Below are positions 1-30,560 of a stretch of DNA of 46,519 nucleotides, piece by piece (the first letter of the stretch is position 1; each line of letters starts with the position of its first letter). The position numbers were made by a program, and so were the translations under genes. The stretch comes from a virus (Duplodnaviria; Heunggongvirae; Uroviricota; Caudoviricetes), in IMG/VR virus record IMGVR_UViG_3300025387_000013, positions 1 through 46,519 of that record. The stretch is one strand, 5' to 3'. The notes beneath the pieces are model-generated. The model ran no database searches, was not told where the DNA came from, and saw nothing but the letters and a program-made list of their open reading frames with translations.

Positions 1-8
1 AAGGAGGA

Positions 9-686: not shown

Positions 687-726
687 TTTTATATGCCTGG
701 GGACCAAAAGTCCTCAGGCTTTTATT

Positions 727-2666: not shown

Positions 2667-2667
2667 G

Positions 2668-3992: not shown

Positions 3993-3995
3993 TTT

Positions 3996-4574: not shown

Positions 4575-4588
4575 AATTTTTAAATTCT

Positions 4589-4620
4589 CTTGGTTTATAA
4601 AAGGGGTAGTAGTACATTTG
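4589..4620 (+). promoter_or_regulatory. Bacteroidota housekeeping-sigma promoter upstream of nrdJ
   Basis: CTTG(4589-92)-N20-TACATTTG(4613-20), matching the -33 TTTG / -7 TAnnTTTG consensus with one mismatch. Confidence 0.6.
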
Positions 4621-4636
4621 CTACCCCTTATTTTTT
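4601..4636 (+). terminator. hairpin plus T-tract (intrinsic terminator-like)
   Basis: AAGGGGTAG(4601-09)/CTACCCCTT(4621-29) perfect 9-bp stem followed by ATTTTTT. Confidence 0.65.
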
Positions 4637-4654
4637 AACCAAAAACAATTAAAT

Positions 4655-6571: not shown

Positions 6572-6582
6572 ACACACATAAT

Positions 6583-6777
6583 ATGGAAAACGAAAAGAAA
6601 GATTTTGTAAAAGATGTAGACTACTATCTAGAATATGGATATGTAATCTTTACAGAAAAATATTTAAAAGAAAAAGGAGAATGTTGTGGTAGTAAATGTA
6701 GACATTGCCCTTATGAGCCAACAAACATAAGAGGTATATCTACGCTAAAAGAGACCACACCTCCTTCAACAACCTAG
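6583..6777 (+). CDS. small Cys-rich protein (DUF5522-like)
   Basis: FTEKYLKEKGECCGSKCRHCPY. Confidence 0.7.
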   Translation: MENEKKDFVKDVDYYLEYGYVIFTEKYLKEKGECCGSKCRHCPYEPTNIRGISTLKETTPPSTT

Positions 6778-6785
6778 TTACTAAT

Positions 6786-6817
6786 TTTGATTTTACCCCC
6801 TAATGTGTCTACATTTG
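6786..6817 (+). promoter_or_regulatory. Bacteroidota housekeeping-sigma promoter upstream of recA
   Basis: TTTG(6786-89)-N20-TACATTTG(6810-17), exact consensus. Confidence 0.7.
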
Positions 6818-6832
6818 GGGGGTTTTTATTTT
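6795..6832 (+). terminator. hairpin plus T-tract
   Basis: ACCCCCT-AATGT-gtct-ACATT-T-GGGGGGT followed by TTTTATTTT. Confidence 0.6.
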
Positions 6833-6836
6833 AAAC

Positions 6837-6865
6837 TGTCGCAAAAAAAGATTAAATTTGCGACA
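6837..6865. promoter_or_regulatory. 9-bp inverted repeat (operator-like) containing a second -7 box
   Basis: TGTCGCAAA-N11-TTTGCGACA; TAAATTTG at 6853-6860; 17 nt before the recA ATG. Confidence 0.55.
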
Positions 6866-6882
6866 ATAAAAACAACTAAAAT

Positions 6883-7911
6883 ATGGCTAAAGCAGTTAAA
6901 CAAGAGGGTGGAGTTTCTAAGTTTCAAGATGCATTAGATAAGCTCAATAAGACTTATGGTGCTGGAACTGTACTAACATTAGATAGTAAGACAAATGGTA
7001 ATTATGATGTAATCAGTACAGGAAGTATTGGATTTGATAACATTACATTAGGTACAGGAGGATTTGTTAAAGGTAAGATGTATGAATTGATGGGTTGGGA
7101 AGGATCTGGTAAATCAACTATCTGTGGACATGTTGTAGCTGAATGCCAAAAGAAAGGTGGAGTAGCATTGTATATTGATGGTGAACATGCCGTAGATAAA
7201 AAGTATTTTGAAGCTATTGGTGTAGACACTACTAAAATGTTAATTGCTCAACCTAGTTGTGGTGAAGAAGGTTTTCAAATTGCTATGGATATGATAAACA
7301 CTGGTGATATTGATCTAGTGATAATTGATAGTGATAGCTCTTTGATTCCTAAAAAAGTGTTAGATGGTGATGTAGGAGATAGTTCTATTGGTAAAAAAGC
7401 TCTATTGAATAGCAATGCCTACCCAAAATTAAAAAGTGCTCTATCTGAACACAATGTTTGTGTTATTGTAATTAGTCAATACAGAGAGAAAATTGGCATG
7501 ATGTTCGGTAATCCTACAACAACACAAGGTGGACATGCTCTTAAGTTCTACACAGATTGTAGAATTGAGGTGAGTAAGAGTCTTGGTAAAGATGGGGATG
7601 TAAACTATGGTAATATTACTAAGGTGAAAGCTATTAAGAACAAAATGTCTGCTCCTTATAGAATTCATTCATTTGATATTATTTATGGCCAGGGTATTGA
7701 TAAGATTGGAGAGATTATGGAACTTATCAATGAGTTTGAACTTGGTAGAAAGTATGGTAAGACAATGACTTTTAATGAAATTAAATATGATCTTGATCAA
7801 TTCAAGAGCATGATTATTGATAACGAAGAATTTTACAATGAAATCAAAACAACCATTATTGACAAAATCAATAACACCCAGATCAAAATCGAAGAAACTC
7901 ATGAAGATTAA
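6883..7911 (+). CDS. recA: RecA recombinase
   Basis: STGSIGFD, Walker A GWEGSGKST, IDGEHA, Walker B LVIIDS, TQGGHALKFY, KNK. Confidence 0.95.
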   Translation: MAKAVKQEGGVSKFQDALDKLNKTYGAGTVLTLDSKTNGNYDVISTGSIGFDNITLGTGGFVKGKMYELMGWEGSGKSTICGHVVAECQKKGGVALYIDGEHAVDKKYFEAIGVDTTKMLIAQPSCGEEGFQIAMDMINTGDIDLVIIDSDSSLIPKKVLDGDVGDSSIGKKALLNSNAYPKLKSALSEHNVCVIVISQYREKIGMMFGNPTTTQGGHALKFYTDCRIEVSKSLGKDGDVNYGNITKVKAIKNKMSAPYRIHSFDIIYGQGIDKIGEIMELINEFELGRKYGKTMTFNEIKYDLDQFKSMIIDNEEFYNEIKTTIIDKINNTQIKIEETHED

Positions 7912-8329
7912 ATTACAGAAAATAACAGAAGATGTTAAAATGCCTATTAAGGTAACTGTAGATGCTGCTTGTTATGATGTATATGCTCACACTATTATAC
8001 ATAAAGAAAACAAGGTGTATGTTGGTCTTGGGTTTAAAACAGAAATACCTAAAGGATATAAAGGTATAATTGTACCACGTAGCAATATTGCTAAATATAA
8101 TTGGGTGATGAACAACTCATTTGGAGTTATTGATTCTGATTATAGAGGTGAGTGGTTAGCTATATTTACACCTATAATTGCTTCTGAAGAAGAGTTTCCT
8201 TATTCTATAGGAGAACGAGTGGCACAGATTTATTTTGAAGAAGTGTTAGAAACTACTTTTGAAATTGTACAAGATTTAGAATCTTCAGAAAGAGGAGAAG
8301 GTGGATTTGGTAGTACAGGTGTCAAGTAA
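7901..8329 (+). CDS. dut: trimeric dUTPase
   Basis: AACYDV, PRS, GVIDSDYRGE, RVAQ, ERGEGGFGSTG. Start placed at ATG 7901. Confidence 0.93.
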   Translation: MKIKLQKITEDVKMPIKVTVDAACYDVYAHTIIHKENKVYVGLGFKTEIPKGYKGIIVPRSNIAKYNWVMNNSFGVIDSDYRGEWLAIFTPIIASEEEFPYSIGERVAQIYFEEVLETTFEIVQDLESSERGEGGFGSTGVK

Positions 8330-8441
8330 ATTGTGCAAAATACTTGACATTATATGTTTTTACATATAAGTTAACTCATTAATAATCAATTATATGCAAA
8401 CACATATAATAATTATTCCTATTTAAAATTCATGCAAAATA

Positions 8442-8843
8442 ATGAAAGCTAAATGTAAAACATGTGGAAAGAATTGTGAAGGAGAATATTGTTTTAGGCA
8501 CAAGACTAGAAAGCCATTAGTTGGAAAAAAGTTGGATATTACCTACATTAAGCCCAAGAATGAGGATAATGTCCAACAAATCCAACAAATGCGAGATTTC
8601 TTTCTCTCTATATGGAAAAGAAGATTACATAATTGTGAAAATTGTGGAAAGTGGCTTGGAAATGAACCTCTTTCTTACATGTTTGATCATCTTCTTGAAA
8701 AAAGTAAATATCCAGAACTTAAATATGAAAAAGAAAATATAATGTTAGTTTGTCTAGAATGTCATGACAATAAAACTAGAGGAAATTTAACTAATTTATT
8801 TAAAGAAAAAATAAAAATAATTAAAGATAAGTTTGGAAAATAA
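8442..8843 (+). CDS. HNH/NinG-like Zn-binding nuclease
   Basis: CKTCGKNCEGEYCFRH N-terminus; CENCG...FDHLLEKSKYPELKYEKENIMLVCLECH. Confidence 0.7.
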   Translation: MKAKCKTCGKNCEGEYCFRHKTRKPLVGKKLDITYIKPKNEDNVQQIQQMRDFFLSIWKRRLHNCENCGKWLGNEPLSYMFDHLLEKSKYPELKYEKENIMLVCLECHDNKTRGNLTNLFKEKIKIIKDKFGK

Positions 8844-8867
8844 TATTATACTTCCTACCTTTATTTA

Positions 8868-9749
8868 ATGAATAAATATTATCTGTACAGATACATTAGA
8901 CTTGATAAAAATATACCATTTTATATTGGCATTGGTACTAAAACTAATGCTGATATAAAATATGGTACATACACTAGAGCAAATAGTATTAAAAAAGGTA
9001 ATGATATTTGGAAAAAAATTAAAGAAAAGAGTCAGCACAAAGTAGAAATTATTTTAGAATCTGATGATTATGAATTCATTAAACAAAAAGAAATTGAATT
9101 TATAAAATTATATGGTAGAATTGATTTAAAAACAGGGTGTTTAGCAAATATGACAGATGGTGGAGAAGGTACTACAAATATTATTGTATCAGAATATTCT
9201 AGACAACTTAGAAGTAATTTTCAAAAAGGAAGAAAAAAATCAAAAGAAAGTATAATTAAACAAACAGTTACTAGAAAAACAAATGGATTTAAACTTTCAA
9301 ATGATGCAAAAAGAAAAATAACTATTTCTAAATCTAAATCTGTTTTACAATTTTCATTAGAAGGAATACTAATTAAAGAATGGAACACTGTTGTTGAAGC
9401 TTCTGAAAATTTAAATATACCTAAATCATCAATATGTCAATGTGCAAACTATAATGAGAAAAAAATATTTACAGCATTTAATTATCTTTGGATATATAAA
9501 GATGATTATATAGTTAACAATGTTGAAAAATTAAATTTAGCTATTCAAAGATGCAAGGAAGGTAAGATTAAAAAAGTAATCACAATTGAAGAAAAGCAAA
9601 AAATTAAAAATGATTATATAAATATATCTAATATCTTTGATAAAAAAGGAGATAGAATAACTTATTTATCAAATAAATATAGTATAAATTATAGTACGAT
9701 TAGAGCTATAATAAATATGAAGAAGTTAACAAAAGACGTGAGTATTTAA
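8868..9749 (+). CDS. GIY-YIG homing endonuclease with NUMOD3-like and NUMOD1-like DNA-binding modules
   Basis: YYLYRY...FYIGIG...E...LANMTDGGEG; KSKESIIKQ; SVLQFSLEGILIKEWNTVVEAS...ICQCA...TAFNYLW. Confidence 0.85.
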   Translation: MNKYYLYRYIRLDKNIPFYIGIGTKTNADIKYGTYTRANSIKKGNDIWKKIKEKSQHKVEIILESDDYEFIKQKEIEFIKLYGRIDLKTGCLANMTDGGEGTTNIIVSEYSRQLRSNFQKGRKKSKESIIKQTVTRKTNGFKLSNDAKRKITISKSKSVLQFSLEGILIKEWNTVVEASENLNIPKSSICQCANYNEKKIFTAFNYLWIYKDDYIVNNVEKLNLAIQRCKEGKIKKVITIEEKQKIKNDYINISNIFDKKGDRITYLSNKYSINYSTIRAIINMKKLTKDVSI

Positions 9750-9765
9750 AAACTAAAACTTAAAT

Positions 9766-10425
9766 ATGAAAGAATCAAACAGGGAGAGAAAGTATGATAT
9801 TAAATATAATGTGCATTTAAATGAAGAACAGAAAGAGGGTAAACAGATTATTAGAGAAAATCAAATAGTTGTTATCACTGGTAGAGCTGGATCTGGTAAA
9901 TCATTGGTTTGTGCCCAAACTGCTCTTGATTTTCTATTGAAGAAAGAATGTGATAGAATTTATGTTACTAGAGCAACTATTGAAGTGGGTAATTCATTAG
10001 GTTTTCTTCCTGGAGGATTAGATGAGAAGTTCAATCCCTATCTAGAAGCTTTTATGGAGAATCTAGCCAAGTGTAAGGACAAAGAAACTCTTGATAAGCT
10101 TGTATCAGAATCAAGAATCTTAGCCTATCCTATTCAGTTTATCAGGGGAAAGACTATTGATGATGTTCTTGTTGTAGAGGAAGCTCAGAATCTAAGTAAA
10201 GATCAGATGCTGGCTATTCTCACCAGACTTGGTAAAACAGGAAAGATTATTATCAATGGAGACCTTGAGCAAACAGACATTAGAAATAAGACAGGAGAAG
10301 CTAACGGACTTAGTTATGTTATAGAACTATCTAAGAAGATTGATGAGATACAATGGATTAAATTAAAAGAAAACCACCGTAGTGATATAGTGGGTAAAAT
10401 TTTAGATTATGAGTATGGTAAGTAA
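9766..10425 (+). CDS. phoH: PhoH-like ATPase
   Basis: TGRAGSGKS, IYVTR, LGFLPG, FIRGKT, VEEAQN, LTRLG, NGDLEQTD. Confidence 0.93.
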   Translation: MKESNRERKYDIKYNVHLNEEQKEGKQIIRENQIVVITGRAGSGKSLVCAQTALDFLLKKECDRIYVTRATIEVGNSLGFLPGGLDEKFNPYLEAFMENLAKCKDKETLDKLVSESRILAYPIQFIRGKTIDDVLVVEEAQNLSKDQMLAILTRLGKTGKIIINGDLEQTDIRNKTGEANGLSYVIELSKKIDEIQWIKLKENHRSDIVGKILDYEYGK

Positions 10426-11125: not shown

Positions 11126-11920
11126 ATGCTTAATAAGGATTACATAATGCCTTTGTTAGGAGGTAGACTTGGTAACAACTTGTTTATGATAGCTCATGCT
11201 TATGTAAAAGGGCTTGACTATAATAAACAGGTTGTTATCTATAAACCTCATGTGCAATATCATGGAAATGATTATTCTCAGAACATCTTTAAGAAACTAG
11301 AATTTACAGATGTATTAGAAGATAGTAAGAATTTAAATCTTGCAGTTCCTTCTGATGATCAGCCTACATTTTATTATGGATATTATCAAAGTGAAAGATA
11401 CTTTGAGAGATATAGTGAAAATATAAAAAGTTTATTTGGGCCACCTGCTGAATTTATAAATAGAATAAAGCAAGAACTTCCTTTTATATTTGAAGGTGAT
11501 GTAACAGTAATAAATGTTCGTAGAGGAGATTATTTACACTATCCTAACTATCATCCTGTAATTACAACAGAATACATATATGAGGCTCTAAAGCACATAA
11601 AAAATACAAGAGTGTATTTAATAGCTAGTGATGATCTTGATTGGTGTAAAGAGAATATTCATCTACCTAATATGCATTTCTTATTAGGATATACAGCAGA
11701 AGAACAATTGTGGATCTTGTCTATGTGTAATAACTTTGTTATATCTAATAGTTCTTTTAGTTGGTGGGCAGCCTATCTATCTAGATATAGAAACAAAATA
11801 GTTGTAGCTCCTCAAACATGGTTTGGTCCTGATCATTTTAACTCCTGGCAAGATATGTATTGTTATAATTGGAAAATTCTTCCAACTTATTTTGAAAACG
11901 GATTAATAAAACCAAAATGA
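11126..11920 (+). CDS. GT11 family alpha-1,2-fucosyltransferase-like protein
   Basis: GGRLGNNLF, GYYQSERYF, INVRRGDYL, ASDDLDWCKEN, ISNSSFSWWAAYL, VAPQTWF. Confidence 0.9.
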   Translation: MLNKDYIMPLLGGRLGNNLFMIAHAYVKGLDYNKQVVIYKPHVQYHGNDYSQNIFKKLEFTDVLEDSKNLNLAVPSDDQPTFYYGYYQSERYFERYSENIKSLFGPPAEFINRIKQELPFIFEGDVTVINVRRGDYLHYPNYHPVITTEYIYEALKHIKNTRVYLIASDDLDWCKENIHLPNMHFLLGYTAEEQLWILSMCNNFVISNSSFSWWAAYLSRYRNKIVVAPQTWFGPDHFNSWQDMYCYNWKILPTYFENGLIKPK

Positions 11921-12606
11921 TTTCTGTATTAACACTTACGTACAAAAGACACCATCTATTAGAAGAAGCTATTGAATCGTTTTTACAGAACGAAAGCTTC
12001 CATCCTAAAGAAATGGTTATAATCAACGATAACCCTGAAGTAGACTATGTTTATGATCATGAAGATGTAAGAATCATCAATCATAAACAAAGATTTCCTT
12101 CTATAGCAGCTAAAATTGAATGGGGCTATAAACAATGTAAATATGATTATATCTACAGGCTAGATGATGATGATCTTTTAAACAAAACAGCAATATCTAA
12201 TGCTACGTTAGATATATTAGAGAACCCTGGATATGAAATCTATAGAAGCTCAGGTATGTATTTCTTTGTACATAATATCTTTGAAGGTCTTAATAGCAAC
12301 ATTAACAATGGAAATATATATACTAAAGAGTATTTAGATAGGATTAAGTTTCCAGATTTGTCTGGTACAGAAGATGATAATATTACTTATGGACATGGTG
12401 CCAAAATATTTGAATCTAAAAGAAAACCAACAATGCTTTATAGATGGGGAATGAATACGTTACATATTTCTGGAATGGGAATACAACCCAATCATGCAAT
12501 TCTTGCCCAAGCTGATAGAGTGTTAGATAATACTAAAGGGGTAATAACACTTAACCCACATTTTGATAATGATTATTATGAACAAATAAAAAGAGCCTCC
12601 AAATAG
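11917..12606 (+). CDS. GT2 family glycosyltransferase
   Basis: ISVLTLTYKR...AIESFL...VIIND; YIYRLDDDD (DxD). Confidence 0.85.
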   Translation: MISVLTLTYKRHHLLEEAIESFLQNESFHPKEMVIINDNPEVDYVYDHEDVRIINHKQRFPSIAAKIEWGYKQCKYDYIYRLDDDDLLNKTAISNATLDILENPGYEIYRSSGMYFFVHNIFEGLNSNINNGNIYTKEYLDRIKFPDLSGTEDDNITYGHGAKIFESKRKPTMLYRWGMNTLHISGMGIQPNHAILAQADRVLDNTKGVITLNPHFDNDYYEQIKRASK

Positions 12607-17454: not shown

Positions 17455-18474
17455 TTAATAGTTGAGGTTGTATTTATTTTTTAATTCTATAAGTTTTGTA
17501 ACATAATAATGAGTTCCCTTTTTCTTAGAATCTTCATTATTTAATACATTATTTATTTGACTGTCTTTGAAAGGATCTTTACCTGAATGATATAGTCCTT
17601 TATAGAAAGCCTGATAACCAGGCATGTCATTCGATGTAATTCCAGCATTATGAAAGAGTCCAAGTCTATTTACCTTCTCCATATCATCTGAGGCCCATGA
17701 GAAATCCATTTCAGGAATGTTCTTAGTCTCAAGATCTCTTAACCAAAGGTTCCATAACACAGCCCACATATCTGCACACCAGCTTTGAAATCCTTTATTT
17801 TCATTTGCAAAGAATTGACTATTAATATGTTGTAAATATTTACGTATTAATATACAATCGTTCATCACCTTGTTCCAGAAATTAGCATCTACATTCTTTA
17901 AAAAGTATTGTGCTCCTCCTGAGTTATTGTTGTTAGCTTCTGCAATCTCTCTAGTTATACCTATCAAGCTTGTTATCTCAGCTAATACATCTCTAGTTTT
18001 GTATTCTTCCAGTTTCTCTGGGAGAACATCATGTATTTTACTATCAAAATATGAAGCGTTTATATAGCTATTTGTATCTGAAAGATAACAAACATCATCA
18101 TCTATATAATCATCTACGTTAAACCTATCTGTAAATAGAATATCACAATCACAATAGAATACAGCTTTACTAATCATTTCAGGATGGTCTTTGAACCATC
18201 TCATTAAGACATATGGACGTAGAACAGGAATATATGTTCCAAGTTGTTGACTAACATCTCCATCATCTTTGTAATAAGCAAACTGTGCTTCTGGATATAG
18301 ATCTTCTACTTGTTTCCATTTCTCATTTTTCTCTCTGAAGCTTGGTGTATACACTAAGACAATAGCCTTGTCTGAATGTCCAATCTCCTTTAAGCTTTCT
18401 AACCAGGCATGTACTTGCCATGAGAAATACGCATCATCTGGCTGAGCGACTACAAATCTTAATTCCTTACCCAT
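17455..18474 (-). CDS. GT-A glycosyltransferase resembling peptidyl-Ser/Hyp O-glycosyltransferases (SGT1/HPAT-like)
   Basis: YFSWQV...LESL; YIPVLRPYVLMRWF; FYCDCDILF (DxD); SWCADMWAVLW. Start placed at MGKELRF (18474). Confidence 0.6.
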   Translation of the reverse strand: MGKELRFVVAQPDDAYFSWQVHAWLESLKEIGHSDKAIVLVYTPSFREKNEKWKQVEDLYPEAQFAYYKDDGDVSQQLGTYIPVLRPYVLMRWFKDHPEMISKAVFYCDCDILFTDRFNVDDYIDDDVCYLSDTNSYINASYFDSKIHDVLPEKLEEYKTRDVLAEITSLIGITREIAEANNNNSGGAQYFLKNVDANFWNKVMNDCILIRKYLQHINSQFFANENKGFQSWCADMWAVLWNLWLRDLETKNIPEMDFSWASDDMEKVNRLGLFHNAGITSNDMPGYQAFYKGLYHSGKDPFKDSQINNVLNNEDSKKKGTHYYVTKLIELKNKYNLNY

Positions 18475-18475
18475 A

Positions 18476-19069
18476 TTATTTAGTTGTTGGTTTACATCTT
18501 TCATCTCTTCTTAGTATATCAGTTGCATTAAACTTCCAAGTTTTTCCAGCTATGATTGCTCTAACTGTATACAAACTAACTCCTAATATTTCAGAGACTT
18601 CTTTTGCACCTTTTCCTGAGTTATATAATTCTTTAATAATAGTAACTTTTTTATCTGTGAGTGTTGCTCTACCATTTCCTTCACCAGCTCTACTAGGTTG
18701 TAGTCCTAATTTATAAGCATGTAATTGATTTTCTGAATTAGTAACCCACTCAAGATTTACAATACTATTATCAGTTTTTATACCATTAATGTGATTTATT
18801 TGAGTACATCCTTCAGGTTTTACTAAGAAAGCACTAGCTACAAGTTTATGAACTAATCTAGTGTGAGTTCCATTTTTACGAAGCCTAACTTCAGGATATC
18901 CCTTTTTATTAAGCATTTGTTTCATTTCTTGTCCTCTAGTTAATCGAAGTCCATTTCTACCTTGTTTAAGTCTATCTATTCCTCTAATTTTACCAAGACT
19001 ACTTACCTGATATCCTTCAAAGTTAGGAACATCTCTCCATTCTTCACAGATAAACTTAAGATCCTTCAT
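18476..19069 (-). CDS. NUMOD4-HNH homing endonuclease
   Basis: EEWRDVPNFEGYQVSSLGKIR (NUMOD4); VHKLVASAF...INHINGIKTDNSIVNLEWVTNSENQLHA; C-terminal HTH-like tail. Confidence 0.9.
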   Translation of the reverse strand: MKDLKFICEEWRDVPNFEGYQVSSLGKIRGIDRLKQGRNGLRLTRGQEMKQMLNKKGYPEVRLRKNGTHTRLVHKLVASAFLVKPEGCTQINHINGIKTDNSIVNLEWVTNSENQLHAYKLGLQPSRAGEGNGRATLTDKKVTIIKELYNSGKGAKEVSEILGVSLYTVRAIIAGKTWKFNATDILRRDERCKPTTK

Positions 19070-20032: not shown

Positions 20033-20506
20033 TTATTTTGTAAAATATAAATCAGCTTCTGCTCTTCTTCTTCTTAATAATCCTCCTTGTTTTTGACCAT
20101 CTGCATATACCCATTTCATAAACTCATCTCTTATAGAAGGATCATTTGGATCTGTATTCACTTTAATTCTTAATGTAGAACCTTTAAATCTTCCCACTCC
20201 TTCATTATAAGCAAAAGATATAACTGCATCATATTGATTAGATGTAAGATCATCTCTTAGTAGAGGATCTACATATTGTATTTGTTGACTCATCTCCCAT
20301 TTAAGAAACTCCAAAGCTTGTTCCATTGTAATTAATGGATCACCCACTTCTACTTTTTTACCATTTAAATAGTTTGGTGGGTATTGAATGGTTCCATAAC
20401 CAATTGTATCTACACCTACAGGATCTATAGAATCATGATAGGCTTTAGGATAAAATCCTTCAAATAGCTTTACTAAATTAGCACAATTATCATTAATAGT
20501 AATCAT
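20033..20506 (-). CDS. endolysin, GH24 phage lysozyme
   Basis: KLFEGF..AYHD...DTIGYG; NQYDAVISFAYNEG...STL; GLLRRRRAEADLY. Start is 20506 or 20524. Confidence 0.92.
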   Translation of the reverse strand: MITINDNCANLVKLFEGFYPKAYHDSIDPVGVDTIGYGTIQYPPNYLNGKKVEVGDPLITMEQALEFLKWEMSQQIQYVDPLLRDDLTSNQYDAVISFAYNEGVGRFKGSTLRIKVNTDPNDPSIRDEFMKWVYADGQKQGGLLRRRRAEADLYFTK

Positions 20507-21108
20507 TATAATACAATTTTCCAATATGAACTAATCCCATACACTATACCATTAGAGCTATAGCCAACATTTACACCAAAGATTCTATCTTTCCTATCTT
20601 TATACAGTCCTCCTACAAATCCTCCACTAAGGCCAATTTGTTTATTTCCAAATAGCCCTCCTCCTATGTACAATTGTCTTGTAGGTTTTGTATATTCATG
20701 CACTGTAACAGTTTCTTTAGGAACTCTTATACTGTATTTAATAGAAGATCCTACTAATAGGTTTGATGACACTGTATCTGTAACTATAGCATCTCCATAT
20801 TCACCTAATTTAAACGGTGTAGCATAAATTCTCTTAGAAAAATATCTATCTCCTAGAGAATCATATTGAACTACCACCTTTTCAAAGGTCTTACCAGGAG
20901 TGTACAATGTATCATGCATCCAATTAGTATCTGCTTTTACATATACTAACTTAGGATGACTAATTACAGAATCATGTATTACAATAGTATCATGTATAAC
21001 TATAGATGTAGTTGGCTCTTTTATATATTTAGGTCCTCCTCCACATCTTTGTAAAAATATAATTGCAAGTAGGATTAAAATAATAAAAGTTAAAATGTTG
21101 GTTTTCAT
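20506..21108 (-). CDS. putative spanin / membrane lipoprotein of the lysis cassette
   Basis: MKTNILTFIILILLAIIFLQRC N-terminal TM with Cys; beta-rich C-terminus; adjacent to the lysozyme. Confidence 0.55.
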   Translation of the reverse strand: MKTNILTFIILILLAIIFLQRCGGGPKYIKEPTTSIVIHDTIVIHDSVISHPKLVYVKADTNWMHDTLYTPGKTFEKVVVQYDSLGDRYFSKRIYATPFKLGEYGDAIVTDTVSSNLLVGSSIKYSIRVPKETVTVHEYTKPTRQLYIGGGLFGNKQIGLSGGFVGGLYKDRKDRIFGVNVGYSSNGIVYGISSYWKIVL

Positions 21109-21112
21109 ATAT

Positions 21113-21319
21113 TTAAGTTGTTGGTTGAGAATCATCACTAAATAGGTTAGATACAAACTTTGCTATCACACCTAATACAAATATAATAGTTCCTGCTGTA
21201 GGATAACCATTTAATATAGTAATACTTCCACCAAATGTAGTTGCTGCTACCACTGAATCTGCAACTTTTCTAATTTTTTTTGGGGTTGGTGCCCAGTATT
21301 GATTTATTCCAAAAGACAT
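21113..21319 (-). CDS. putative holin
   Basis: 68 aa with two hydrophobic segments and a TPKKIRK N-terminus, upstream of spanin and lysozyme. Confidence 0.55.
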   Translation of the reverse strand: MSFGINQYWAPTPKKIRKVADSVVAATTFGGSITILNGYPTAGTIIFVLGVIAKFVSNLFSDDSQPTT

Positions 21320-21320
21320 A

Positions 21321-21680
21321 TTATGGGGTTTTTTGTTGAGTTTGTTCTATTTGTCTTTGATTATTCTTAGTCATTATTAAACTAGAATATATAGTGACAC
21401 TGTATTGTATAATTGCACCTAATGCTAACACTATACCAATAGTCCATAAAGTTTTCTTTTTGAACTCTTCATATTGTAACTGTTTACTCTCTAGCTCTAT
21501 CACCTTACTCTTTAATGCTTCAATATCTTGGATGAATCCTCCAGTTTTAGTAAGAGGATTACCTAATATTGCATCTACCACCTGTGTCAACTTAGTGTCA
21601 ATACTGTTAATCTTATCTTCCATATCTGTTAGTCTTGCATCCATGCTTAGTAAATCATCTTGTAATGTACGAATTTCCAT
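21321..21680 (-). CDS. coiled-coil protein with C-terminal TM (holin/antiholin-like)
   Basis: Heptad-rich N-terminus, then KKKTLWTIGIVLALGAIIQY. Confidence 0.55.
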   Translation of the reverse strand: MEIRTLQDDLLSMDARLTDMEDKINSIDTKLTQVVDAILGNPLTKTGGFIQDIEALKSKVIELESKQLQYEEFKKKTLWTIGIVLALGAIIQYSVTIYSSLIMTKNNQRQIEQTQQKTP

Positions 21681-21761
21681 ATTAGTTGGTGTAGCTATAA
21701 CACAAAATCCCCAATGAAGGGGAATTTAAATGTTATCTAGTTGAAAAATAATAGGTGATAG

Positions 21762-21793
21762 CAAAACTATGTAAAACAAATGATATAACCAAA
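21762..21793 (-). promoter_or_regulatory. Bacteroidota housekeeping-sigma promoter driving the leftward lysis/appendage block
   Basis: Minus strand TTTG(21793-90)-N20-TAGTTTTG(21769-62), exact consensus. Confidence 0.7.
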
Positions 21794-21825
21794 TATTTTT
21801 TTCTTATGGATTGGTATAATTTTCT

Positions 21826-21833
21826 TATTTTTG
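21826..21833 (+). promoter_or_regulatory. possible -7 box for the glycosyltransferase island
   Basis: TATTTTTG 17 nt before ATG 21851; no well-spaced -33 element. Confidence 0.35.
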
Positions 21834-21850
21834 TTAAAAATAACAATTAC

Positions 21851-24055
21851 ATGAAACCAATATGTCTTGATCTAAAAGAGCTTATAGATTTAGAAAATAT
21901 AAACTCTTATATAGAAGACTTATATAATATCTACAGACAAAAGATATATGTATTGTCAAGTCAGCCAGAACATTTCAAAAACAACCCCCACGTTCTAAAA
22001 AGCTATAAAAAGGCATCAATGAATATTGCCTGGTTTGAAAACCATACAGAAATATATACATATGATGTAAAACCAAAACTACTAGTTATAGTTCCTCACA
22101 TGTCCACTGGTGGTTGTCCTCAAGTGACATTAAATAAAGTGGAGCTTCTCCAATCTTCCTTTAATATACAAGTGGTAGAATATGCATTCTATGGGCCAGC
22201 CTATGTGGTTCAGAGAAATAAGATGATTGCTCTAGTGGGAGAAGATAAGTTTCATTCTCTAGGAGAAAATAAGTTTGCAGATCTCATTAAAATATGTGAT
22301 AGGTTCAAGCCACAGGTTATATCTATAGAAGAGTTTCCAGAGATGTTTATGAATACTGAATGTGCTAACTATCTATATAATACAGAGAGAAATTGGAAAA
22401 TTATAGAAACTACACATGATAGTTCATTCAATCCAAGAAACAAATTCTACCTACCTGATCAGTTTGTGTTTGTTAGTGCTTATAGCCTGTTCAAATATAT
22501 TGATCTAAATGTTCCTATGGAGATTATAGAATACCCTGTAGATAAGAAAGAACGTAATAAACTAGCAAGACAACAACAGTTTGGTTTAGATCCTGAGTAT
22601 AAGCATATTGTGATAGTTGGGTTATTTACAGCTAGGAAGAACCAAGGATATGCTTTTGAAATGGCCAGACAATTAGAGAATTATAAAGTAAAGTTTCATT
22701 TCTTAGGTAACCAGGCAGGTAATTTTGAAGACTATTGGAAACCATTGATGGCCAACAAACCTGACAACTGTATCATCTGGGGAGAAAGAAGTGATGTATC
22801 TGAGTTCTTACAAGCTTGTGATATGTTCCTATTCCCATCCAAAGGTGATCGTGGAAACAAGGAACTCAATCCAATTGCTATTAAGGAAGCTCTAGAATAT
22901 GATATGGTTAAGATGATATATCCTCTAGATGTATATTGTAATAAGTATGATGATTATGAGGATGTAGTTTATTTAACAGGAGATGTTAATACTGATAGTA
23001 CCAACTTAATTAGTTATCTAAACCTTACAGCATCTTTAAAGATGAATGTAGATGAGGAAGTGATTGTTATAGGAACCTATCCTAATTTAAAAAGACGTGT
23101 AGAACTTACAAAAGAATGTATAAGATCATTAAAACCATTAGGTAGAAAAATAATTTTAGTTAGTCACTATCCTGTAGATCAAGAGATTCAAAGAATGGTG
23201 GATTATTATATCTATGATAAACATAATCCAATGACCTTTCATTCTTATTATACATTGTTTTTTAATTATGCATCAGACTATGATGTAAATATTAATATTA
23301 ACCAATTACATGATGGTAATCAATCGTTGGCTGTTTTAACTAATCTATTTAATGGGTTTAAACATGCCAAAGCACATGGATTTAAAAGTTTATTCTATGT
23401 TACATTTGATATTATAATTGATCCTAGGGATATACCAGCTATTAATGAATCATTTAATACATTACGTAATGGTAAGAAGGCACATTTAGCTATATTCAAA
23501 ACAGAATTTGAATATGGTATACAAACCAATGGTATGACTTTCAATGTAGACTATTTCTTAGATAGGTTCGATGATGTAAGAGATGTAGAAACTTATAATA
23601 GTATTTGCAAAAATATTGGTTCGCAAAACTTCTTAGAAGATTATCTTGCTAAAAAGTTAGAAAAGCTTAATAAGAATGAGTTATATATTAGACCAATGAA
23701 AAAAAATGGAGAAGCTGAAACATTTCTTGAATATACAGGTGTAGGACTTTCTTCTCATAGTGAGTATTATTCTATTTTACCAGTGATGGAAAAAGATAAT
23801 GTATTCATGTTCTATTTCTATACATATAATATAGATGATAGAATTGTTAAAGTGAGAATAGAAAATACATTATTTGAATTTAATATATCTGAAACTAAAG
23901 AATATAAATATGAGTTTGCTTACACTGGTAAACCTATAACTATAACTATTGAGTTTTATGATGATGATAATCTATACAAAAAAGAATCACATATAATAAA
24001 TGAAGATACACTTGATAAATATATAAACACTGGAAAATTCTCATGGAAAAAATAA
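21851..24055 (+). CDS. bifunctional glycosyltransferase: GT4-like (GT-B) domain fused to a GT-A-like domain
   Basis: VPHMSTGGCP; IVGLFTARKNQ; ACDMFLFPS...ELNPIAIKEAL; C-terminal VIGTYP...IILVSHYP...YYIYDKHNP...FYVTFDII. Start placed at ATG 21851; track uses GTG 21755. Confidence 0.8.
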   Translation: MKPICLDLKELIDLENINSYIEDLYNIYRQKIYVLSSQPEHFKNNPHVLKSYKKASMNIAWFENHTEIYTYDVKPKLLVIVPHMSTGGCPQVTLNKVELLQSSFNIQVVEYAFYGPAYVVQRNKMIALVGEDKFHSLGENKFADLIKICDRFKPQVISIEEFPEMFMNTECANYLYNTERNWKIIETTHDSSFNPRNKFYLPDQFVFVSAYSLFKYIDLNVPMEIIEYPVDKKERNKLARQQQFGLDPEYKHIVIVGLFTARKNQGYAFEMARQLENYKVKFHFLGNQAGNFEDYWKPLMANKPDNCIIWGERSDVSEFLQACDMFLFPSKGDRGNKELNPIAIKEALEYDMVKMIYPLDVYCNKYDDYEDVVYLTGDVNTDSTNLISYLNLTASLKMNVDEEVIVIGTYPNLKRRVELTKECIRSLKPLGRKIILVSHYPVDQEIQRMVDYYIYDKHNPMTFHSYYTLFFNYASDYDVNININQLHDGNQSLAVLTNLFNGFKHAKAHGFKSLFYVTFDIIIDPRDIPAINESFNTLRNGKKAHLAIFKTEFEYGIQTNGMTFNVDYFLDRFDDVRDVETYNSICKNIGSQNFLEDYLAKKLEKLNKNELYIRPMKKNGEAETFLEYTGVGLSSHSEYYSILPVMEKDNVFMFYFYTYNIDDRIVKVRIENTLFEFNISETKEYKYEFAYTGKPITITIEFYDDDNLYKKESHIINEDTLDKYINTGKFSWKK

Positions 24056-25074: not shown

Positions 25075-26160
25075 ATGCTTAAGTATAACTTATACATGAT
25101 TGGTAACATATATTTTGAAATCCTAGAAGCCTGGGAGAACAAAGAATATTATGTTAAAATTGTAGAACAAAAAGGTGATGAAAGATATTTTATTTATGGT
25201 GAAACCTTAAGGCCAGGGATGTGGCTTAGAAGTGATAGATCCTATCTAAGTGACTATTTTGTAGAGATTTGGGATGGTGATCAGTTAAGAGAAGAGATAG
25301 ATGTAATTAAACACATCACTAGTCTGAAGGTTTTTATAACCCTTGAATCTAAGTCTATAGGAGATAACTTAGCTTGGATACCTTATTGTTTAGAGTTTAA
25401 AAAACAATACAAATGTGATGTTGTAGTTTCTACATTTCATAACACTCTATTTAAGAGTGTATATCCAGAGCTATCATTTGTTGAACCAGGATGTGTTGTA
25501 CATGGTATTATGGCTATGTTTCATGTTGGTTGGGATTGGAATCCAAACAATGAACCTCAGGAACCAAATCTTATTCCTTTACAAAAAGCTGCTACTAACA
25601 TTCTTAATTTAGAATTCAGAGAGATAAAACCTAGAATAGCATTTCTTCCTAAGAAAAGACCTATGAAGGATAAGTATATTGCTATATCAACAAGATCTAC
25701 ATCTCAAGCAAAACATTGGTATTATTGGCAAGATCTAATAAATATTCTTAAAGAGAAAGAATATAAGGTGGTGGAAGTATCTTTAGAAGGATCTGACTTT
25801 CAAGGACTTGAACCAGTGGAGGATAGAAGCCCTGAGAATGTAATGAATCTAATTCATTATTCAGAATTCTTAATAGGACTTGGTAGTGGTTCTTCTTGGT
25901 TAGCTTGGGCTCTTGGTAAACGTGTTGTAATGATTTCTAATTTCTCAAAGGATGGTCATGAGTTTACAACCAATTGCATAAGAATCAAAGACACATCTAT
26001 ATGTCATGGATGTTGGAACAATCCAATGTTCAGATTTAATAAGGGAGATTGGAACTGGTGCCCTGAACATGAGCATACAGATAGACAATTTGAATGTCAT
26101 AAGCTTATATCAGCAGAAAATGTAATGAAACAGATAATGAAAAAGGGGCTATTAAACTAG
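25075..26160 (+). CDS. TibC/AAH-like autotransporter O-heptosyltransferase-family protein glycosyltransferase
   Basis: SKSIGDNLAW; STSQAKHW; FLIGLGSGSSWLAWALGKRVVMISNFS; CHGCWN...WCP...FEC (Cx2Cx15Cx11C iron finger, 26002-26097). Confidence 0.85.
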   Translation: MLKYNLYMIGNIYFEILEAWENKEYYVKIVEQKGDERYFIYGETLRPGMWLRSDRSYLSDYFVEIWDGDQLREEIDVIKHITSLKVFITLESKSIGDNLAWIPYCLEFKKQYKCDVVVSTFHNTLFKSVYPELSFVEPGCVVHGIMAMFHVGWDWNPNNEPQEPNLIPLQKAATNILNLEFREIKPRIAFLPKKRPMKDKYIAISTRSTSQAKHWYYWQDLINILKEKEYKVVEVSLEGSDFQGLEPVEDRSPENVMNLIHYSEFLIGLGSGSSWLAWALGKRVVMISNFSKDGHEFTTNCIRIKDTSICHGCWNNPMFRFNKGDWNWCPEHEHTDRQFECHKLISAENVMKQIMKKGLLN

Positions 26161-26168
26161 CCCCTTTT
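26141..26168. terminator. bidirectional intrinsic terminator
   Basis: AAAAGGGGCTA-TTAAAC-TAGCCCCTTTT, an 11-bp perfect stem between convergent genes. Confidence 0.85.
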
Positions 26169-26171
26169 CAT

Positions 26172-26516
26172 TTATAATGATTCTATTTCATTATGTAAAT
26201 CAACAATGGTGGAAGAAACTAATCCCCACTTCACTTGTCTAAATAACTCTTTTAATTTATCAAAATCAGCATCTTCTAAATCTAGAGTGGCTGTTTTAGA
26301 TAAATCAGAATCACTGAACTTACTTTCATCAATTTGAAATTCTGATTTATGTTCATCTAACTTACTTAATAGACGAAGTCTTTTAATCATTTCATCTACA
26401 TTAAATCCTCCTTCTTGAGGATTATTGATTGCCATTTTTAACAAATCATAAGTAGTGAAGAAAGTGTCTCTACCTTGAATGTTTTCTTTTACTACACGCA
26501 GTTTTATTGATTTCAT
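26172..26516 (-). CDS. hypothetical protein, possibly tail-fibre assembly chaperone
   Basis: 114 aa, alpha-helical, last gene of the fibre operon. Confidence 0.6.
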   Translation of the reverse strand: MKSIKLRVVKENIQGRDTFFTTYDLLKMAINNPQEGGFNVDEMIKRLRLLSKLDEHKSEFQIDESKFSDSDLSKTATLDLEDADFDKLKELFRQVKWGLVSSTIVDLHNEIESL

Positions 26517-26531
26517 ATTTGAAGATTTTTA

Positions 26532-26562
26532 CAAAAATAACAAATTAAATTAAACTAACAAT
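26532..26562 (-). promoter_or_regulatory. possible Bacteroidota-type promoter for 26172..26516
   Basis: Minus strand ATTG-N19-TATTTTTG ending 15 nt before the ATG. Confidence 0.45.
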
Positions 26563-26846
26563 TAAATTGTTGTAGTTGTACTAGTGGTTGTTGTAGGAGC
26601 AAATGTTAAATTAAGTGTTTTTGCTGCCCAATTCCAAGCTTGATCATTTGTATTCCAATCAGTTTCATAATCAGGACTTACCATTGATAAGTTTCCTTGA
26701 CTTAACATTACAGTATTTACATCAAAAAGAGCATAATAAAATGATGCTGAATTAATAAGATTGTCATTAATACAATAAAGTTGTAATTGTGTAGCTTGAA
26801 CATTTTGTCCATTTGTCCAAATGTTGATAGGTGTGATTTCTCTCAT
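26562..26846 (-). CDS. tail-fibre-associated small protein with Thr-rich C-terminal tail
   Basis: ITPINIWTNG...SASFYYAL...WNTNDQAWNWAAKTLNLT followed by APTTTTSTTTTI. Confidence 0.65.
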   Translation of the reverse strand: MREITPINIWTNGQNVQATQLQLYCINDNLINSASFYYALFDVNTVMLSQGNLSMVSPDYETDWNTNDQAWNWAAKTLNLTFAPTTTTSTTTTI

Positions 26847-26864: not shown

Positions 26865-29800
26865 TTAATATCCTTCTATAATTAAAAATCCTGTAGATGT
26901 AGCTCCTGTAACAGTCATTGCAGTAGTAGTTAAAGAAGTAACTAAAGCCGCAGCTAAACCATTGGTTGTTAATATAACAGGGGTTTGAGTAAATGCAATA
27001 GGGAAAGTATAAGCCGCAGTACCTACAAGAGCAGCACAATACACTATTACTTTTTTATAAGACGTTCCTTGTTCAGGTTGAGAATAGTTTGCAGTTCCAC
27101 TTGTTGAACCGTTTACTAATGTTTGGGTTGCGGAGTTTTTTAATACAGTTACTTTTGCACTACCTACTACCTGTAGCTTATCTGTACCATTGTCTGTTGT
27201 AGAGCCTAAGATAATATTTCCACCAACTGATATTCTCATTCTTTCAGCATAAGCAGCCCCAGTAGCAAAAACTAAATTTCCAGTACTATTACCTTGTGTG
27301 CCTATTCCAAAATCATTTGCAAGACCAGCAGTAACAGCAGTTGCAGAACCGATAAGACCAATAGAAGATGATGTGATGAAGTCTATCCAAGGCTTACCTG
27401 CACTACTTGAAATTTGTATAACTCTGCCCGCTGATTCACCACCGATAAATCTTGAAAAACCACCCGTAACTCTTAACCCATAATTTCCAACGCCCGTAAA
27501 CGCACCATTTGTAAAAGTTGGACTTATATCCAATCCTACAAGTACATCAGAGTTAGCAGCAGCTACTAATGTAGGAGTAGCTATTATCCCCTGTGCTAAA
27601 GCAGAAGCAGCAGTTACACTTCCTGTTAGAGTTGTTTGTCCGTTATGTCTGCTTGTTCCTGTTACGTCAAGTTTATAGCCTGCGTCTGTTGTAGAATTTA
27701 TTGCTAAGTTTCCTGTTGCTCCAAAAAACTTTGATAAAACGGTAGCACTTGTATTAGCAAAACCAATATTATTATTATTCCCTTCAAGAACTATTGCTGA
27801 TGTTCCACCATTGTATGCACTTTTAATTTTTGTATTATTAGAGGTTGCGTCCCATGTAAAACTTCCAACATTTGAAGATACCCCAATTTGATAACCTCTT
27901 TCTTGATTTCCACCAGAAGCGTAATTTATATACGCCATTTCTGCTCTATTTCCCCCATTCCCAATATAAAGTTGACCGCCTATTAATGCATCTCCTGATG
28001 TTCTTAAAGCATAAGTACTTACTCCTGTAAAAGCACCATTTGTAAACGTAGGGTTTATATCTAAACCTACTAATACATCATTATTAGCTGCTGCTACTAA
28101 TGTAGTGTTATTATATTCACCTCTTGCTATAGCTCCTGATGCTGTCATAGTTCCTGTAACTGTTAAAGCAGGGTTACCTGTTGAAGTGGCATTGAACTTT
28201 CCACTCCCAGTTACCTGTAGCTTATCTATACCATTGTCTGTTGGTAAACTGGTACCAGCTCCTATATAAACATTTCCTGTGCTAAATGATACAAATCTCT
28301 GATTGCCTAATCCATCGGCTAATATAACTAAACTTGAACTACTAGCAGATAATCCGCTTGAACTACTTGTAAAACCAATAATAGTGTTGTAATTACCAGT
28401 TGATATTGGATTTATACTAGCCCCAGTGTAACTTGAACCTACAAAAGTATTAAATTGTCCAGTTGTAATATTACCGCCAACATAAGCACCTATAAGTGTA
28501 TTTTGACTTCCAGTTGTAACATTATTACCAGCTGTACTACCTACTGCAACATTAAAATTACCTGTTGTTGCCGTCTTTAATGTATTAACCCCTATTGCAA
28601 CACATTCTTGTGCTGTTGAACCACTTGTACCATATAATGATGCATAGCCTAATGCTGTGTTTGTTTTACCAGTTACATAATACATTGATTGTGAGCCAAC
28701 AGCAGTATTTTGTGTGGCAGTAGTAGCAGATTTTAAAGCATCTCCACCAATTGCAACATTATATGCTGCATTTACTAAAAGTCCAGCTCTTATTCCTACT
28801 GCAACATTATCTGAATATTGAGTATTTAAAGCATTTAATGCTTGATAACCTATTGCCGTTGCCCAAATATTACTTTGTGCAGTTGCAGCTAATGCACCAT
28901 TACCTAATGCTATGCTATAAATATCTCCCCCTGCCCCTAGCCCAACCCTAACTGTATTAATATTTGCATCAGAACCAACAATTCTTAATCCATAATTTGT
29001 TACGCCCGTAAAAGCTCCATTAGTAAACGTAGGATTAATATCCAATCCTACTAATACATCATTATTTGCAGCAGCAGTTAATGTAGGAGTAAGATATGTT
29101 CCTCTAGCAATGGCAGAAGCAGCTGTAACACTTGGGCTAACTACAACACCTGTTGTTAAGTCTTGTATAGAACTATTACCAATTGTACTAGCTGATGTAA
29201 ATTTAACTACAGTGTTAGTAGTTCCTGAAACAGATACAGATGTTCCACTTGTTGCAGAGGTTCCACTAGAACCAGATGTAGCTGAAGATCCAGAACTACC
29301 AGAAGATGCTGAAGTTCCACTAGATGCACTAGAACCACTTGTTCCAGAAGTTCCACTAGTTGAAGATGACCCACTAGTTCCAGAACTTGCACTTGTTCCA
29401 CTTGATCCTGAGGAACCAGATGAACCAGAACTAGCTGAGGTTCCTGAGCTACCACTTGTAGATGATGATCCACTTGTTCCTGAAGAGGCACTACTACCAC
29501 TAGACCCTGATGTGCTAGAAGAACCAGATGTACCACTAGTTGAGGAAGATCCAGAACTTCCACTTGTTCCACTGGAACCTGTAGCTCCACTAGAACCTGT
29601 AGCTCCACTAGAACCAGATGTTCCACTGGAACCAGATGACCCACTACTAGCAGATGTTCCACTGGAACCTGTAGCTCCACTAGAACCTGTAGCTCCACTA
29701 GAACCAGATGTTCCACTGGAACCAGATGACCCACTACTAGCAGATGTTCCACTGGAACCAGATGACCCACTACTAGCAGATGTTCCACTAGATCCTGTAG

Positions 29801-30560
29801 CTCCACTAGAACCTGTAGCTCCTGATGTACCAGAAGTTCCTGAAGCTCCTGCAATGTTAAGATTCCATGAATTATATGTATGTGTTCCTTTAACAGTTGT
29901 AACATACACTGTCATAAATCCAGTGATTTTTGAATAGCTCCCTACAACTCCTATAAAATAATCATTGACACTATTACTAACTGATACGTATTGACCAAAT
30001 GTATATGCTAAATCTAAATCAGTGGTTAAACTAATTGGACTACCATATACTAATGTTGCTAGATTTATACTAGTAGTAGAAGTTCCTACATATCTATCTC
30101 CACTTAATCCTGATGTTCCACTAGAACCAGAAGTGGCACTAGATCCTGAAGATCCGCTAGTTCCACTTGTACCATTGACACCAGATGTACCATCCACACC
30201 TGAAGAACCGCTTGTACCATCTACACCAGAAGATCCACTAGATCCTGATGTTCCAGAGCTTGCACTGGTTCCACTACTAGCACTAGTTCCACTAGATCCA
30301 CTAGTAGCACTAGACCCACTAGTTCCACTAGAACCAGCATCTCCTGATGTACCAGAGGTACCATAACTAAGACCACTAGAGCCAGATGTACCTGCTGTAC
30401 CAGCCACAGCATTGTGTACAGCAATGTTTATTTTTTGTAATGCTACTTCTAATGTATCATTATTGTTGACATCTATATATACCAGATTTTGCCCTTCGTA
30501 AAACACGCAGGCAGAATCTAATAATACTGGACAAGTTTTTGCAGAACAAGTAACATTCAT
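26865..30560 (-). CDS. long tail fibre / adhesin-like virion protein
   Basis: N-terminal [17 protein letters not shown] module; two Gly/Ser/Thr repeat blocks; NxAxG beta-roll repeats; three copies of a 45-aa module. Start placed at MNVTCS (30560); track uses 30602. Confidence 0.8.
27471..29117 (-). repeat. three dispersed copies of a ~45-aa fibre module
   Basis: (S/G)A(I/L)A(R/Q)G...TL(T/V)AAAN(N/S)DVLVGLDI(N/S)[12 protein letters not shown](G/A)LR at 28980-29117, 28002-28136 and 27471-27605. Confidence 0.9.
29236..30404 (-). repeat. Gly/Ser/Thr low-complexity repeat blocks with exact DNA tandem duplications
   Basis: [13 protein letters not shown] repeats at about 29236-29850 and 30100-30404. 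Exact 90-nt unit at 29566-29655 and 29656-29745; 36-nt subunit at 29620, 29710 and 29746. Confidence 0.9.

Follow-up and report, generated by a model that had tools for sequence, protein, structure and literature searches.

The window, as the whole stretch of DNA analysed here is called (46,519 nucleotides), is the first 46.5 kb of the 116,114-bp IMG/VR virus record IMGVR_UViG_3300025387_000013, which is judged complete. The gene in question is an open reading frame on its plus strand, running from an ATG at 25075 to a stop at 26160, which encodes a 361-residue protein (labelled P0001) related to the protein glycosyltransferases TibC and Aah and lies close to the gene of a tail fibre rich in Gly-Ser/Thr-Ser/Thr repeats. 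The large terminase of this phage (genome 81368-83395) shows 40% identity to the terminase of Leptolyngbya phage Lbo-JY46, 34% to the terminases of two Cellulophaga phages, phi17:2 and phi4:1, and about 27% to those of gut crAss-like phages, and because of these identities the phage is classified, from its sequence, as an environmental crAss-like phage. On terminase identity, the nearest phage in culture, nearer than those of Cellulophaga, is one whose reported host is the cyanobacterium Leptolyngbya boryana.

The P0001 gene is the last of three co-directional genes, whose positions are given in Table 1. The stop of the first overlaps the start of the second, and the stop of the second abuts the ATG of P0001. 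This glycosyltransferase operon forms a plus-strand island within a minus-strand structural arm, and the fibre operon, with three genes on the minus strand, converges on it. The fibre stop lies 705 nt from the enzyme stop, with two small minus-strand genes and a terminator hairpin in between; an earlier sequence-only reading of this DNA had put the distance at about 700 nt.

Table 1. Genes, motifs and other features around the P0001 gene, with positions in the window
Feature	Position	Strand	Basis or correspondence
First operon gene, 766 residues, likely start ATG 21851	21755..24055	+	Pfam GT1-type domains; BLAST to relatives; AlphaFold2 model (pLDDT, predicted local distance difference test, 86.5); Foldseek
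GT4 glycosyltransferase, 343 residues	24043..25074	+	Pfam Glyco_trans_1_4 and Glycos_transf_1
TibC/Aah-like GT9 protein glycosyltransferase (P0001), 361 residues	25075..26160	+	TIGR04414; TibC chains; AlphaFold2 model
IGD motif, residues 95-97; D97 = TibC catalytic base Asp-110	25357..25365	+	Alignment to 4rap and the D110A mutant 4rb4
RSTSQAKHW; T209 and K213 = TibC Thr-226 and Lys-230 (beta-phosphate ligands)	25693..25719	+	Alignment
ENVMN; V256 at the position of TibC Arg-286 (adenine N1 contact)	25834..25848	+	Alignment
GLGSGSSWLAWA, residues 268-279; W275 = TibC Trp-305 (heptose O4)	25876..25911	+	Alignment
Iron finger CHGC-x15-C-x11-C, residues 310-341 (C310, C313, C329, C341)	26002..26097	+	Aligned to TibC Cys-339/342/358/370
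GC-rich hairpin lying between the glycosyltransferase operon and the fibre operon convergent with it, a bidirectional terminator of both	26141..26168	both	
114-residue protein, last gene of the fibre operon	26172..26516	-	56-67% identical at loci L008 and L012, beside the enzyme gene
94-residue fibre-associated protein, Thr-rich C-terminal tail	26562..26846	-	Homologues in phages with and without the enzyme
Tail fibre, 1231 residues from M15	26865..30560	-	Pfam Collagen; PHROG tail-fibre families

Family, fold and residues of the TibC-like enzyme

P0001 scores 219.6 bits (E 6e-65) on the Aah/TibC profile TIGR04414, covering profile positions 29-372 of 374, and 218.5 bits when the whole genome is searched with profiles, the curated cut-off being 200 bits. 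The TibC chains 4rap and 4rb4 match its residues 49-351 with an E value of 1e-40, and the structure-based identity to TibC is 26-28%. An AlphaFold2 model built on 63 homologues, with a mean pLDDT of 95.8, has strands at residues 3-76 that form an N-terminal beta-barrel, followed by a Rossmann-like GT-B core. In a Foldseek search with this model TibC (4rb4/4rap) came top, with a template-modelling (TM) score of 0.83 over about 380 columns that include the beta-barrel; WaaC and WaaF came next at 0.41-0.50. On the profile of lipopolysaccharide (LPS) heptosyltransferase I, TIGR02193, the protein reaches 14.8 bits against a cut-off of 185.3, and on the Pfam family of GT9 enzymes, PF01075, 27.8 bits. 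The identity of an LPS heptosyltransferase was rejected on the TIGR02193 score, the TM scores of WaaC and WaaF, and the presence of the iron finger. A search of PHROGs matched P0001 to none of its families, and no autotransporter gene was found in the window, where the neighbours of the enzyme are phage fibre genes.

The sequence-only reading had called the protein a TibC/AAH-like iron-finger glycosyltransferase, and the TIGR04414 search and TibC overlay that it proposed agree with this call: the best match is TibC, not an LPS enzyme of family GT9 without the finger. The motifs it quoted (IGD, QAKHW at residues 211-215, GLGSGSSWLAWA and the Cx2Cx15Cx11C cysteine spacing) all lie where it had placed them. 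The spacing, which it ascribed to TibC, is that of the TibC iron ligands Cys-339, 342, 358 and 370 (PMC4358343), with which the four cysteines of P0001 align. Among the 63 homologues D97, K213, W275, C310, C313 and C329 are invariant, the position of T209 holds Thr in 56 and Ser in 7, and C341 is retained in 62. The four-Cys finger of P0001 is predicted to bind iron; in TibC the iron finger touches the protein substrate (PMC4358343).

Biochemical and structural work on TibC has shown that it glycosylates Ser, not Thr, and accepts peptides in vitro; that the tip of its beta-hairpin thumb (Phe-265/Val-266) links dimers into a dodecamer, the thumb being needed for activity; that Arg-286 contacts adenine N1 and that its loss cripples the enzyme; and that Pro-300 (Ser in Aah) governs selectivity between D,D- and L,D-heptose (PMC4358343). 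The segment corresponding to the thumb has 16 residues in P0001, about 10 fewer than the 26 of the homologues from Acetobacter, Gluconobacter and Trinickia, which keep the hairpin. Arg at the 286 position, or within one residue of it, is found in none of 11 close phage homologues, as against 7 of 9 homologues from genome records. The stereoselectivity position of TibC Pro-300, which is Ser-294 in Aah, is occupied by G270. In a midpoint-rooted tree P0001 falls inside a large radiation of thumb-less, mostly Arg-less sequences, apart from the clade of cultured bacteria. P0001 is thus a true TibC relative but a distinct variant, and not a canonical dodecameric autotransporter heptosyltransferase, since the thumb is deleted, Arg-286 lost and Pro-300 replaced by Gly, and since it belongs to a separate radiation. 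As thumb and Arg-286 are missing, its mechanism and donor may differ from those of TibC.

In the collections searched, most of the diversity of this family is found in uncultured phages and metagenomes, and many members are multi-domain fusions. Among 1.84 billion cluster representatives there are 1271 matches at E <=0.001 and 601 at E <=1e-30, and most of the best are proteins of 600-2000 residues in which the TibC-like domain is C-terminal or nearly so. Deposited phage records with the enzyme are few (4 of 50,697: three megaphages and the Microcystis phage Mel-JY01), and a viral library of predicted structures holds two members, of which one comes from Virus NIOZ-UU157 and the other bears the automatic name 'Glycosyltransferase Aah/TibC'. 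A first pattern scan of species-representative genomes found no close cellular relative; an alignment-based scan of the same kind of collection gave 64 loci, the closest on short or phage-like contigs of Bacteroidota bins. Homologues in cultured Acetobacter, Gluconobacter and Trinickia are just 27-33% identical. The literature was searched for TibC or heptosyltransferases in phages, for glycosylation of collagen-like proteins in crAss-like phages and for Mel-JY01, and no paper on a phage member or on the pairing described below was found.

Pairing of the enzyme with repeat fibres

The fibre consists of a conserved N-terminal anchor, two Gly-, Ser-, Thr- and Ala-rich blocks (residues 51-156 and 233-452, numbered from M15) and a beta-rich C-terminal part. 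Its residues 238-440, 203 in all, are made up of 102 Ser, 54 Gly, 30 Thr and 17 Ala, with no Pro or any other residue. Six stretches of the fibre match Pfam Collagen (E 4.5e-26). The 67 triplets of residues 238-440 begin with Gly in 53 cases, Ala in 10 and Ser in 4, an imperfect Gly-X-Y pattern; the repeat stretch thus resembles collagen in sequence, and a triple helix is putative.

The co-occurrence of enzyme and repeats was assessed in 22 long records of the phage clade, defined by a capsid at least 95% identical, which were searched for P0001 and for a DNA pattern coding four consecutive G-[ST]-[ST] triplets. The reversed pattern, used as a control, gave no match in any record. The pattern is present in all 17 records that bear the enzyme, with 10-174 matches each, and in none of the five that lack it. 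Missing sequence cannot account for the absence of repeats, because all five enzyme-less records retain the fibre gene with its conserved anchor, in open frames of 480-2486 residues. In two of them, the complete genome G007, which has terminal repeats, and G002, which is 91% complete, the composition of the fibres is ordinary, and no glycosyltransferase operon lies in the interval that separates the fibre genes from the homologues of window genes 21321-21680 and 20506-21156. Stretches of the C-terminal part of the fibre have relatives in the enzyme-less G007, so that the association is with the repeat stalk and not with the remainder of the fibre. In the genome studied here, all five matches to the pattern fall within the fibre gene, at 29391-30172. 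Of the two targets named by the sequence-only reading, the GTSGSSG stalk has thereby gained strong comparative, if indirect, support, enzyme and repeats being present or absent together, and the beta-roll has gained none, given the C-terminal relatives in an enzyme-less phage.

Phages outside this clade show the pairing too. The distance between repeats and enzyme gene is about 2.6 kb in G023, where the two are convergent, and about 16 kb in G024. In the cultured Microcystis phage Mel-JY01 (PP395634.1), all 17 pattern matches of the 190-kb genome are located in the first 9.7 kb, where they flank a gene at 4750-8430 for a fusion protein of 1226 residues with a TibC-like domain (317 bits). The deposited annotation of this protein is 'methyltransferase FkbM', and within positions 1-9900 of the same record the Gly-Ser/Thr repeat DNA bears a coding-sequence annotation on the opposite strand, which may be mis-called. 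The megaphage LR756501.1 has 1447 matches, seven of them about 5 kb from its enzyme gene. Three crAss-like phages without the enzyme, Lbo-JY46, phi17:2 and cr50_1, have no match (0/3).

Relatives of the major capsid protein encoded at genome 75296-76849 occur on at least 597 IMG/VR contigs, the best 80 being 95-99% identical. The TibC-like proteins of phages of the same clade are only about 45-55% identical to P0001, and elsewhere the region is replaced outright. Because of this difference between capsid and enzyme, the enzyme-plus-fibre region is regarded as a hypervariable island, and sequence comparison suggests that the enzyme cassette and the repeat fibre are inherited and exchanged jointly as one variable module.

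A search of the 114-residue protein of the fibre operon against Pfam and PHROG gave no match. A second type of Gly-rich repeat is seen in additional fibre-region proteins of some relatives, with 26-33% Gly and ordinary Ser/Thr content (L047:13000-13947, L049:13021-14019 and L004:11058-13767).

The glycosyltransferase cassette and the sugar donor

The three genes of the operon encode four glycosyltransferase-type domains. The first protein starts with a GT9 remnant (residues 33-97), followed by a GT4 domain (about residues 108-430) and by a GT-A-like domain with a beta-sandwich (residues 434-766). The remnant (window 21755-22075) matches the N-terminus of a GT9 gene of about 312 residues in relatives (PF01075, 46 bits); the rest of this plain GT9 gene is deleted here, and the remaining ~65 residues are fused in frame to the GT4 gene, which itself lacks about 235 C-terminal residues found in its relatives. 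The C-terminal third (window 23054-24052) has no sequence-family match and models as a GT-A or nucleotide-sugar-transferase-like domain followed by the beta-sandwich; relatives encode a paralogue of this third, of about 328 residues, as a separate gene. No membrane-like hydrophobic segment was found in any of the three operon proteins, and the identity of a membrane-bound O-antigen conversion enzyme was rejected on this count (0/3).

Homologues of both upstream genes accompany the TibC-like relative at 32 of 36 IMG/VR loci. Among the closer relatives, most have the genes in the order plain GT9 (~312 residues), GT4-containing (~885 residues), GT4 (~340 residues) and TibC-like. In other lineages the ~340-residue GT4 enzyme or the large GT4 enzyme is fused to the TibC-like domain, with fusion proteins of 701 to 1213 residues at loci L022-L030, L032-L034 and L037. 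Because fusions between cassette enzymes recur in several lineages, these enzymes are considered to act in one pathway. The prediction of a complex between the 343-residue GT4 enzyme and the TibC-like enzyme gave a score of 0.00, which weighs neither for nor against binding. The cassettes of relatives often contain in addition a methyltransferase, one to three 2-oxoglutarate-Fe(II) (2OG-Fe(II)) oxygenases (PF13759) and a DUF6445 protein, none of which is present in the window; examples of these extra genes are found at L013:11062-12326, L011:12393-13016, L010:3117-3764 and L003:7761-8306. They may serve in glycan modification or protein hydroxylation, and none of them is a sugar-nucleotide enzyme.

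ADP-heptose, the donor in the known systems, is the default guess for P0001, whose donor may carry another nucleotide since Arg-286 is lost. The sequence-only reading had cautioned that in a Bacteroidota host the sugar may be other than heptose. The 'cytidylyltransferase like protein' encoded near the enzyme gene of Mel-JY01 matched no NCBIfam model. Five Bacteroidota bins that contain the closest relatives in the genome collection carry genes for RfaE domain II, above the cut-off in four of the five, and for proteins like RfaE domain I (303-331 bits, cut-off 345). The relatives in these bins probably sit on binned phage contigs. ADP-heptose could be available in such hosts, since the bins carry RfaE-type genes, the link to the host being weak.

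Two further glycosyltransferase genes of the window, one GT11 fucosyltransferase-like (107 bits) and one GT2, lie at 11126-12606, 9 kb upstream of the operon, and the plus-strand arm also holds RecA (6883-7911) and PhoH (9766-10425). A free-standing NUMOD4 and HNH_3 homing-endonuclease-like gene with a helix-turn-helix tail (18476-19069) lies amid minus-strand genes. The product of 17455-18504, which the sequence-only reading called SGT1/HPAT-like, has homologues of 64-66% identity in the enzyme-less G007 and G002, and its gene is therefore inherited independently of the TibC-like cassette.

Proposed function and comparison with known systems

The best explanation of these observations, to which a probability of roughly 0.65 is assigned, is that the thumb-less TibC-like enzyme and its operon O-glycosylate Ser residues in the repeats of the phage's own fibre, the TibC-like enzyme being most likely the one that primes. 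The model proposes that P0001 would be a soluble iron-finger protein O-glycosyltransferase from a branch of the TibC/Aah enzymes (bacterial autotransporter heptosyltransferases, BAHT, family GT9) that has no thumb and is found mostly in phages and metagenomes. The operon would act in the cytoplasm of the infected cell, before the fibre is assembled, and the targets would be the serines of the Gly-Ser/Thr-Ser/Thr repeat blocks. The TibC-like enzyme would add the first sugar from a nucleotide sugar made by the host, the GT4 and GT-A-like domains would then lengthen the glycan, and this glycan may stiffen, solubilise or protect the nearly proline-free stalk.

Several points weigh against this explanation. 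The glycan on these fibres is a predicted one, and autotransporter repeats of beta-helical fold, not Gly-X-Y repeats, are what the family is known to modify. The thumb that builds the TibC dodecamer is deleted in P0001, where the hairpin sequence is absent, and V256 takes the place of Arg-286. The enzyme is always accompanied by GT4 enzymes, so that one of these may be the initiator of the glycan instead. Genes for gmhA, for an RfaE-type adenylyltransferase or cytidylyltransferase-like protein and for a PfkB-type kinase were sought in the phage, and none was found. Two fragments that bear the enzyme are nearly without the repeat pattern, G025 with one match and G026 with none. Finally, the records are akin and the genes of enzyme and fibre adjoin each other, so that only a handful of independent events underlie the 17-to-5 split; by the authors' own count these comprise about three fibre types without both features, at least three cassette architectures within the clade and four lineages outside it. 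The view of the sequence-only reading, a plain TibC enzyme that primes Ser, stands as regards the family and has to be qualified as regards the rest, given the deleted thumb, the Val in place of Arg-286 and a priming role that is inseparable from the two GT4 enzymes.

It could be argued that the cassette does glycosylate the fibre, with a GT4 enzyme priming Ser/Thr and the TibC-like domain adding a subsequent sugar, such as a heptose placed on a sugar acceptor in the manner of LPS GT9 enzymes. The glycosylation of streptococcal serine-rich-repeat adhesins begins in this way, with the GT4 enzymes GtfA/GtfB. At nearly all loci the TibC-like domain has GT4 domains beside it or fused to it, the cassettes of relatives contain a second, plain GT9 gene, and P0001 has lost the features by which TibC grips the protein it modifies within the dodecamer ring. 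Nevertheless, protein-serine transferase activity has been proven for the TibC lineage and for no other part of the cassette, and P0001 retains both the N-terminal beta-barrel and the iron finger, the element with which TibC contacts its substrate, which makes this order of events unlikely.

A different role is considered still less probable, in which the operon alters an envelope protein, the LPS or the capsule of the host, masks or changes the receptor recognised by this type of fibre, with superinfection exclusion or the avoidance of capture by debris as the result, and co-varies with the fibre on that account and not as enzyme with substrate. It would agree with the transcription of the operon opposite to the structural genes, and phage glycosyltransferases that change the receptor, as in O-antigen conversion, are well known in general. 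Yet the enzyme co-varies with the repeat stalk and not with the receptor-binding tip, the C-terminal fibre stretches being matched in an enzyme-less phage; the three proteins are without membrane segments, unlike the Gtr-type conversion enzymes; and the pairing recurs in unrelated phages whose hosts are probably different. That the enzyme targets other virion or phage proteins, such as the Thr-tailed 94-residue protein or the Ser/Thr-rich proteins at genome 69351-70064 or 60000-65669, and owes its link with the repeats to shared inheritance of one variable island, is very improbable: several further proteins do have 22-34% Ser+Thr and the adjacency of the two genes by itself gives some co-occurrence, but homologues of the 94-residue protein are present in enzyme-less phages, and at least three more phage lineages, unrelated to this one, have repeats next to the enzyme gene.

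Glycosylation of the fibre repeats, the explanation preferred here, can be extended to the family as a whole. In this tentative and rather doubtful generalisation, the TibC/Aah lineage would belong chiefly to phages and the environment rather than to adhesin-modifying pathogens; its thumb-less members, often fused into chains of several enzymes, would O-glycosylate proline-free Gly-Ser/Thr-Ser/Thr fibres, the sugars replacing hydroxyproline in its helix-stabilising role and cassette and fibre being swapped together as a host-range module. TibC and Aah have been studied as virulence-associated enzymes in a few Proteobacteria; what is new is the co-occurrence of enzyme and repeats, complete in the 22 records of the clade and extending to lineages outside it. 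If the fibres are glycosylated, phages would decorate their host-recognition apparatus on a wide scale, which would matter for adsorption, for stability in water and for the way in which grazers or immune systems recognise them, and a serine-directed glycosyltransferase with a simple repeat acceptor would be at hand for glyco-engineering. The clade is very abundant and a cultured carrier, Mel-JY01, exists, so that direct testing is possible.

The closest known systems are TibC of enterotoxigenic Escherichia coli and Aah of diffusely adhering E. coli (BAHT, TIGR04414, PDB 4RAP and 4RB4, PMC4358343). P0001 has in common with them the beta-barrel, the GT-B core, the spacing of the four-Cys finger, the catalytic Asp, the Thr and Lys ligands of the beta-phosphate, the Trp at heptose O4 and solubility, and its gene likewise neighbours one for a surface protein that is long, repetitive and rich in serine. 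In contrast to them, its candidate substrate is a collagen-like phage fibre and not a beta-helical autotransporter, its gene converges on that of the candidate substrate instead of preceding it in one operon, and it has GT4 and GT-A-like partners, which are fused to it in some phages. The LPS enzymes WaaC and WaaF (GT9) share the CAZy-type fold family and the nucleotide-sugar binding core of P0001, but have neither beta-barrel nor iron finger and use a lipid-linked sugar as acceptor.

As regards phages, the mycobacteriophages Che8, Corndog and Myrna possess glycosyltransferase operons that O-glycosylate their own structural proteins in the cytoplasm of the host. These operons differ from the present one in that they employ other enzyme families, modify the C-termini of capsid and tail-tube proteins and act in Actinobacteria. 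Among collagen-like proteins, BclA of Bacillus anthracis and the cuticle collagen of the vent worm Riftia reportedly bear O-glycans on Gly-X-Thr/Ser repeats, and in the worm protein glycosylated Thr is said to stabilise the helix in the place of hydroxyproline. Both differ from the phage fibre in being non-viral, and the enzymes involved are different or not identified. The reference list of PMC11923368 includes Daubenspeck 2004, Mann 1996 and Bann 2000 for these proteins. By analogy with these proteins, a glycan on the phage stalk could stiffen or protect it.

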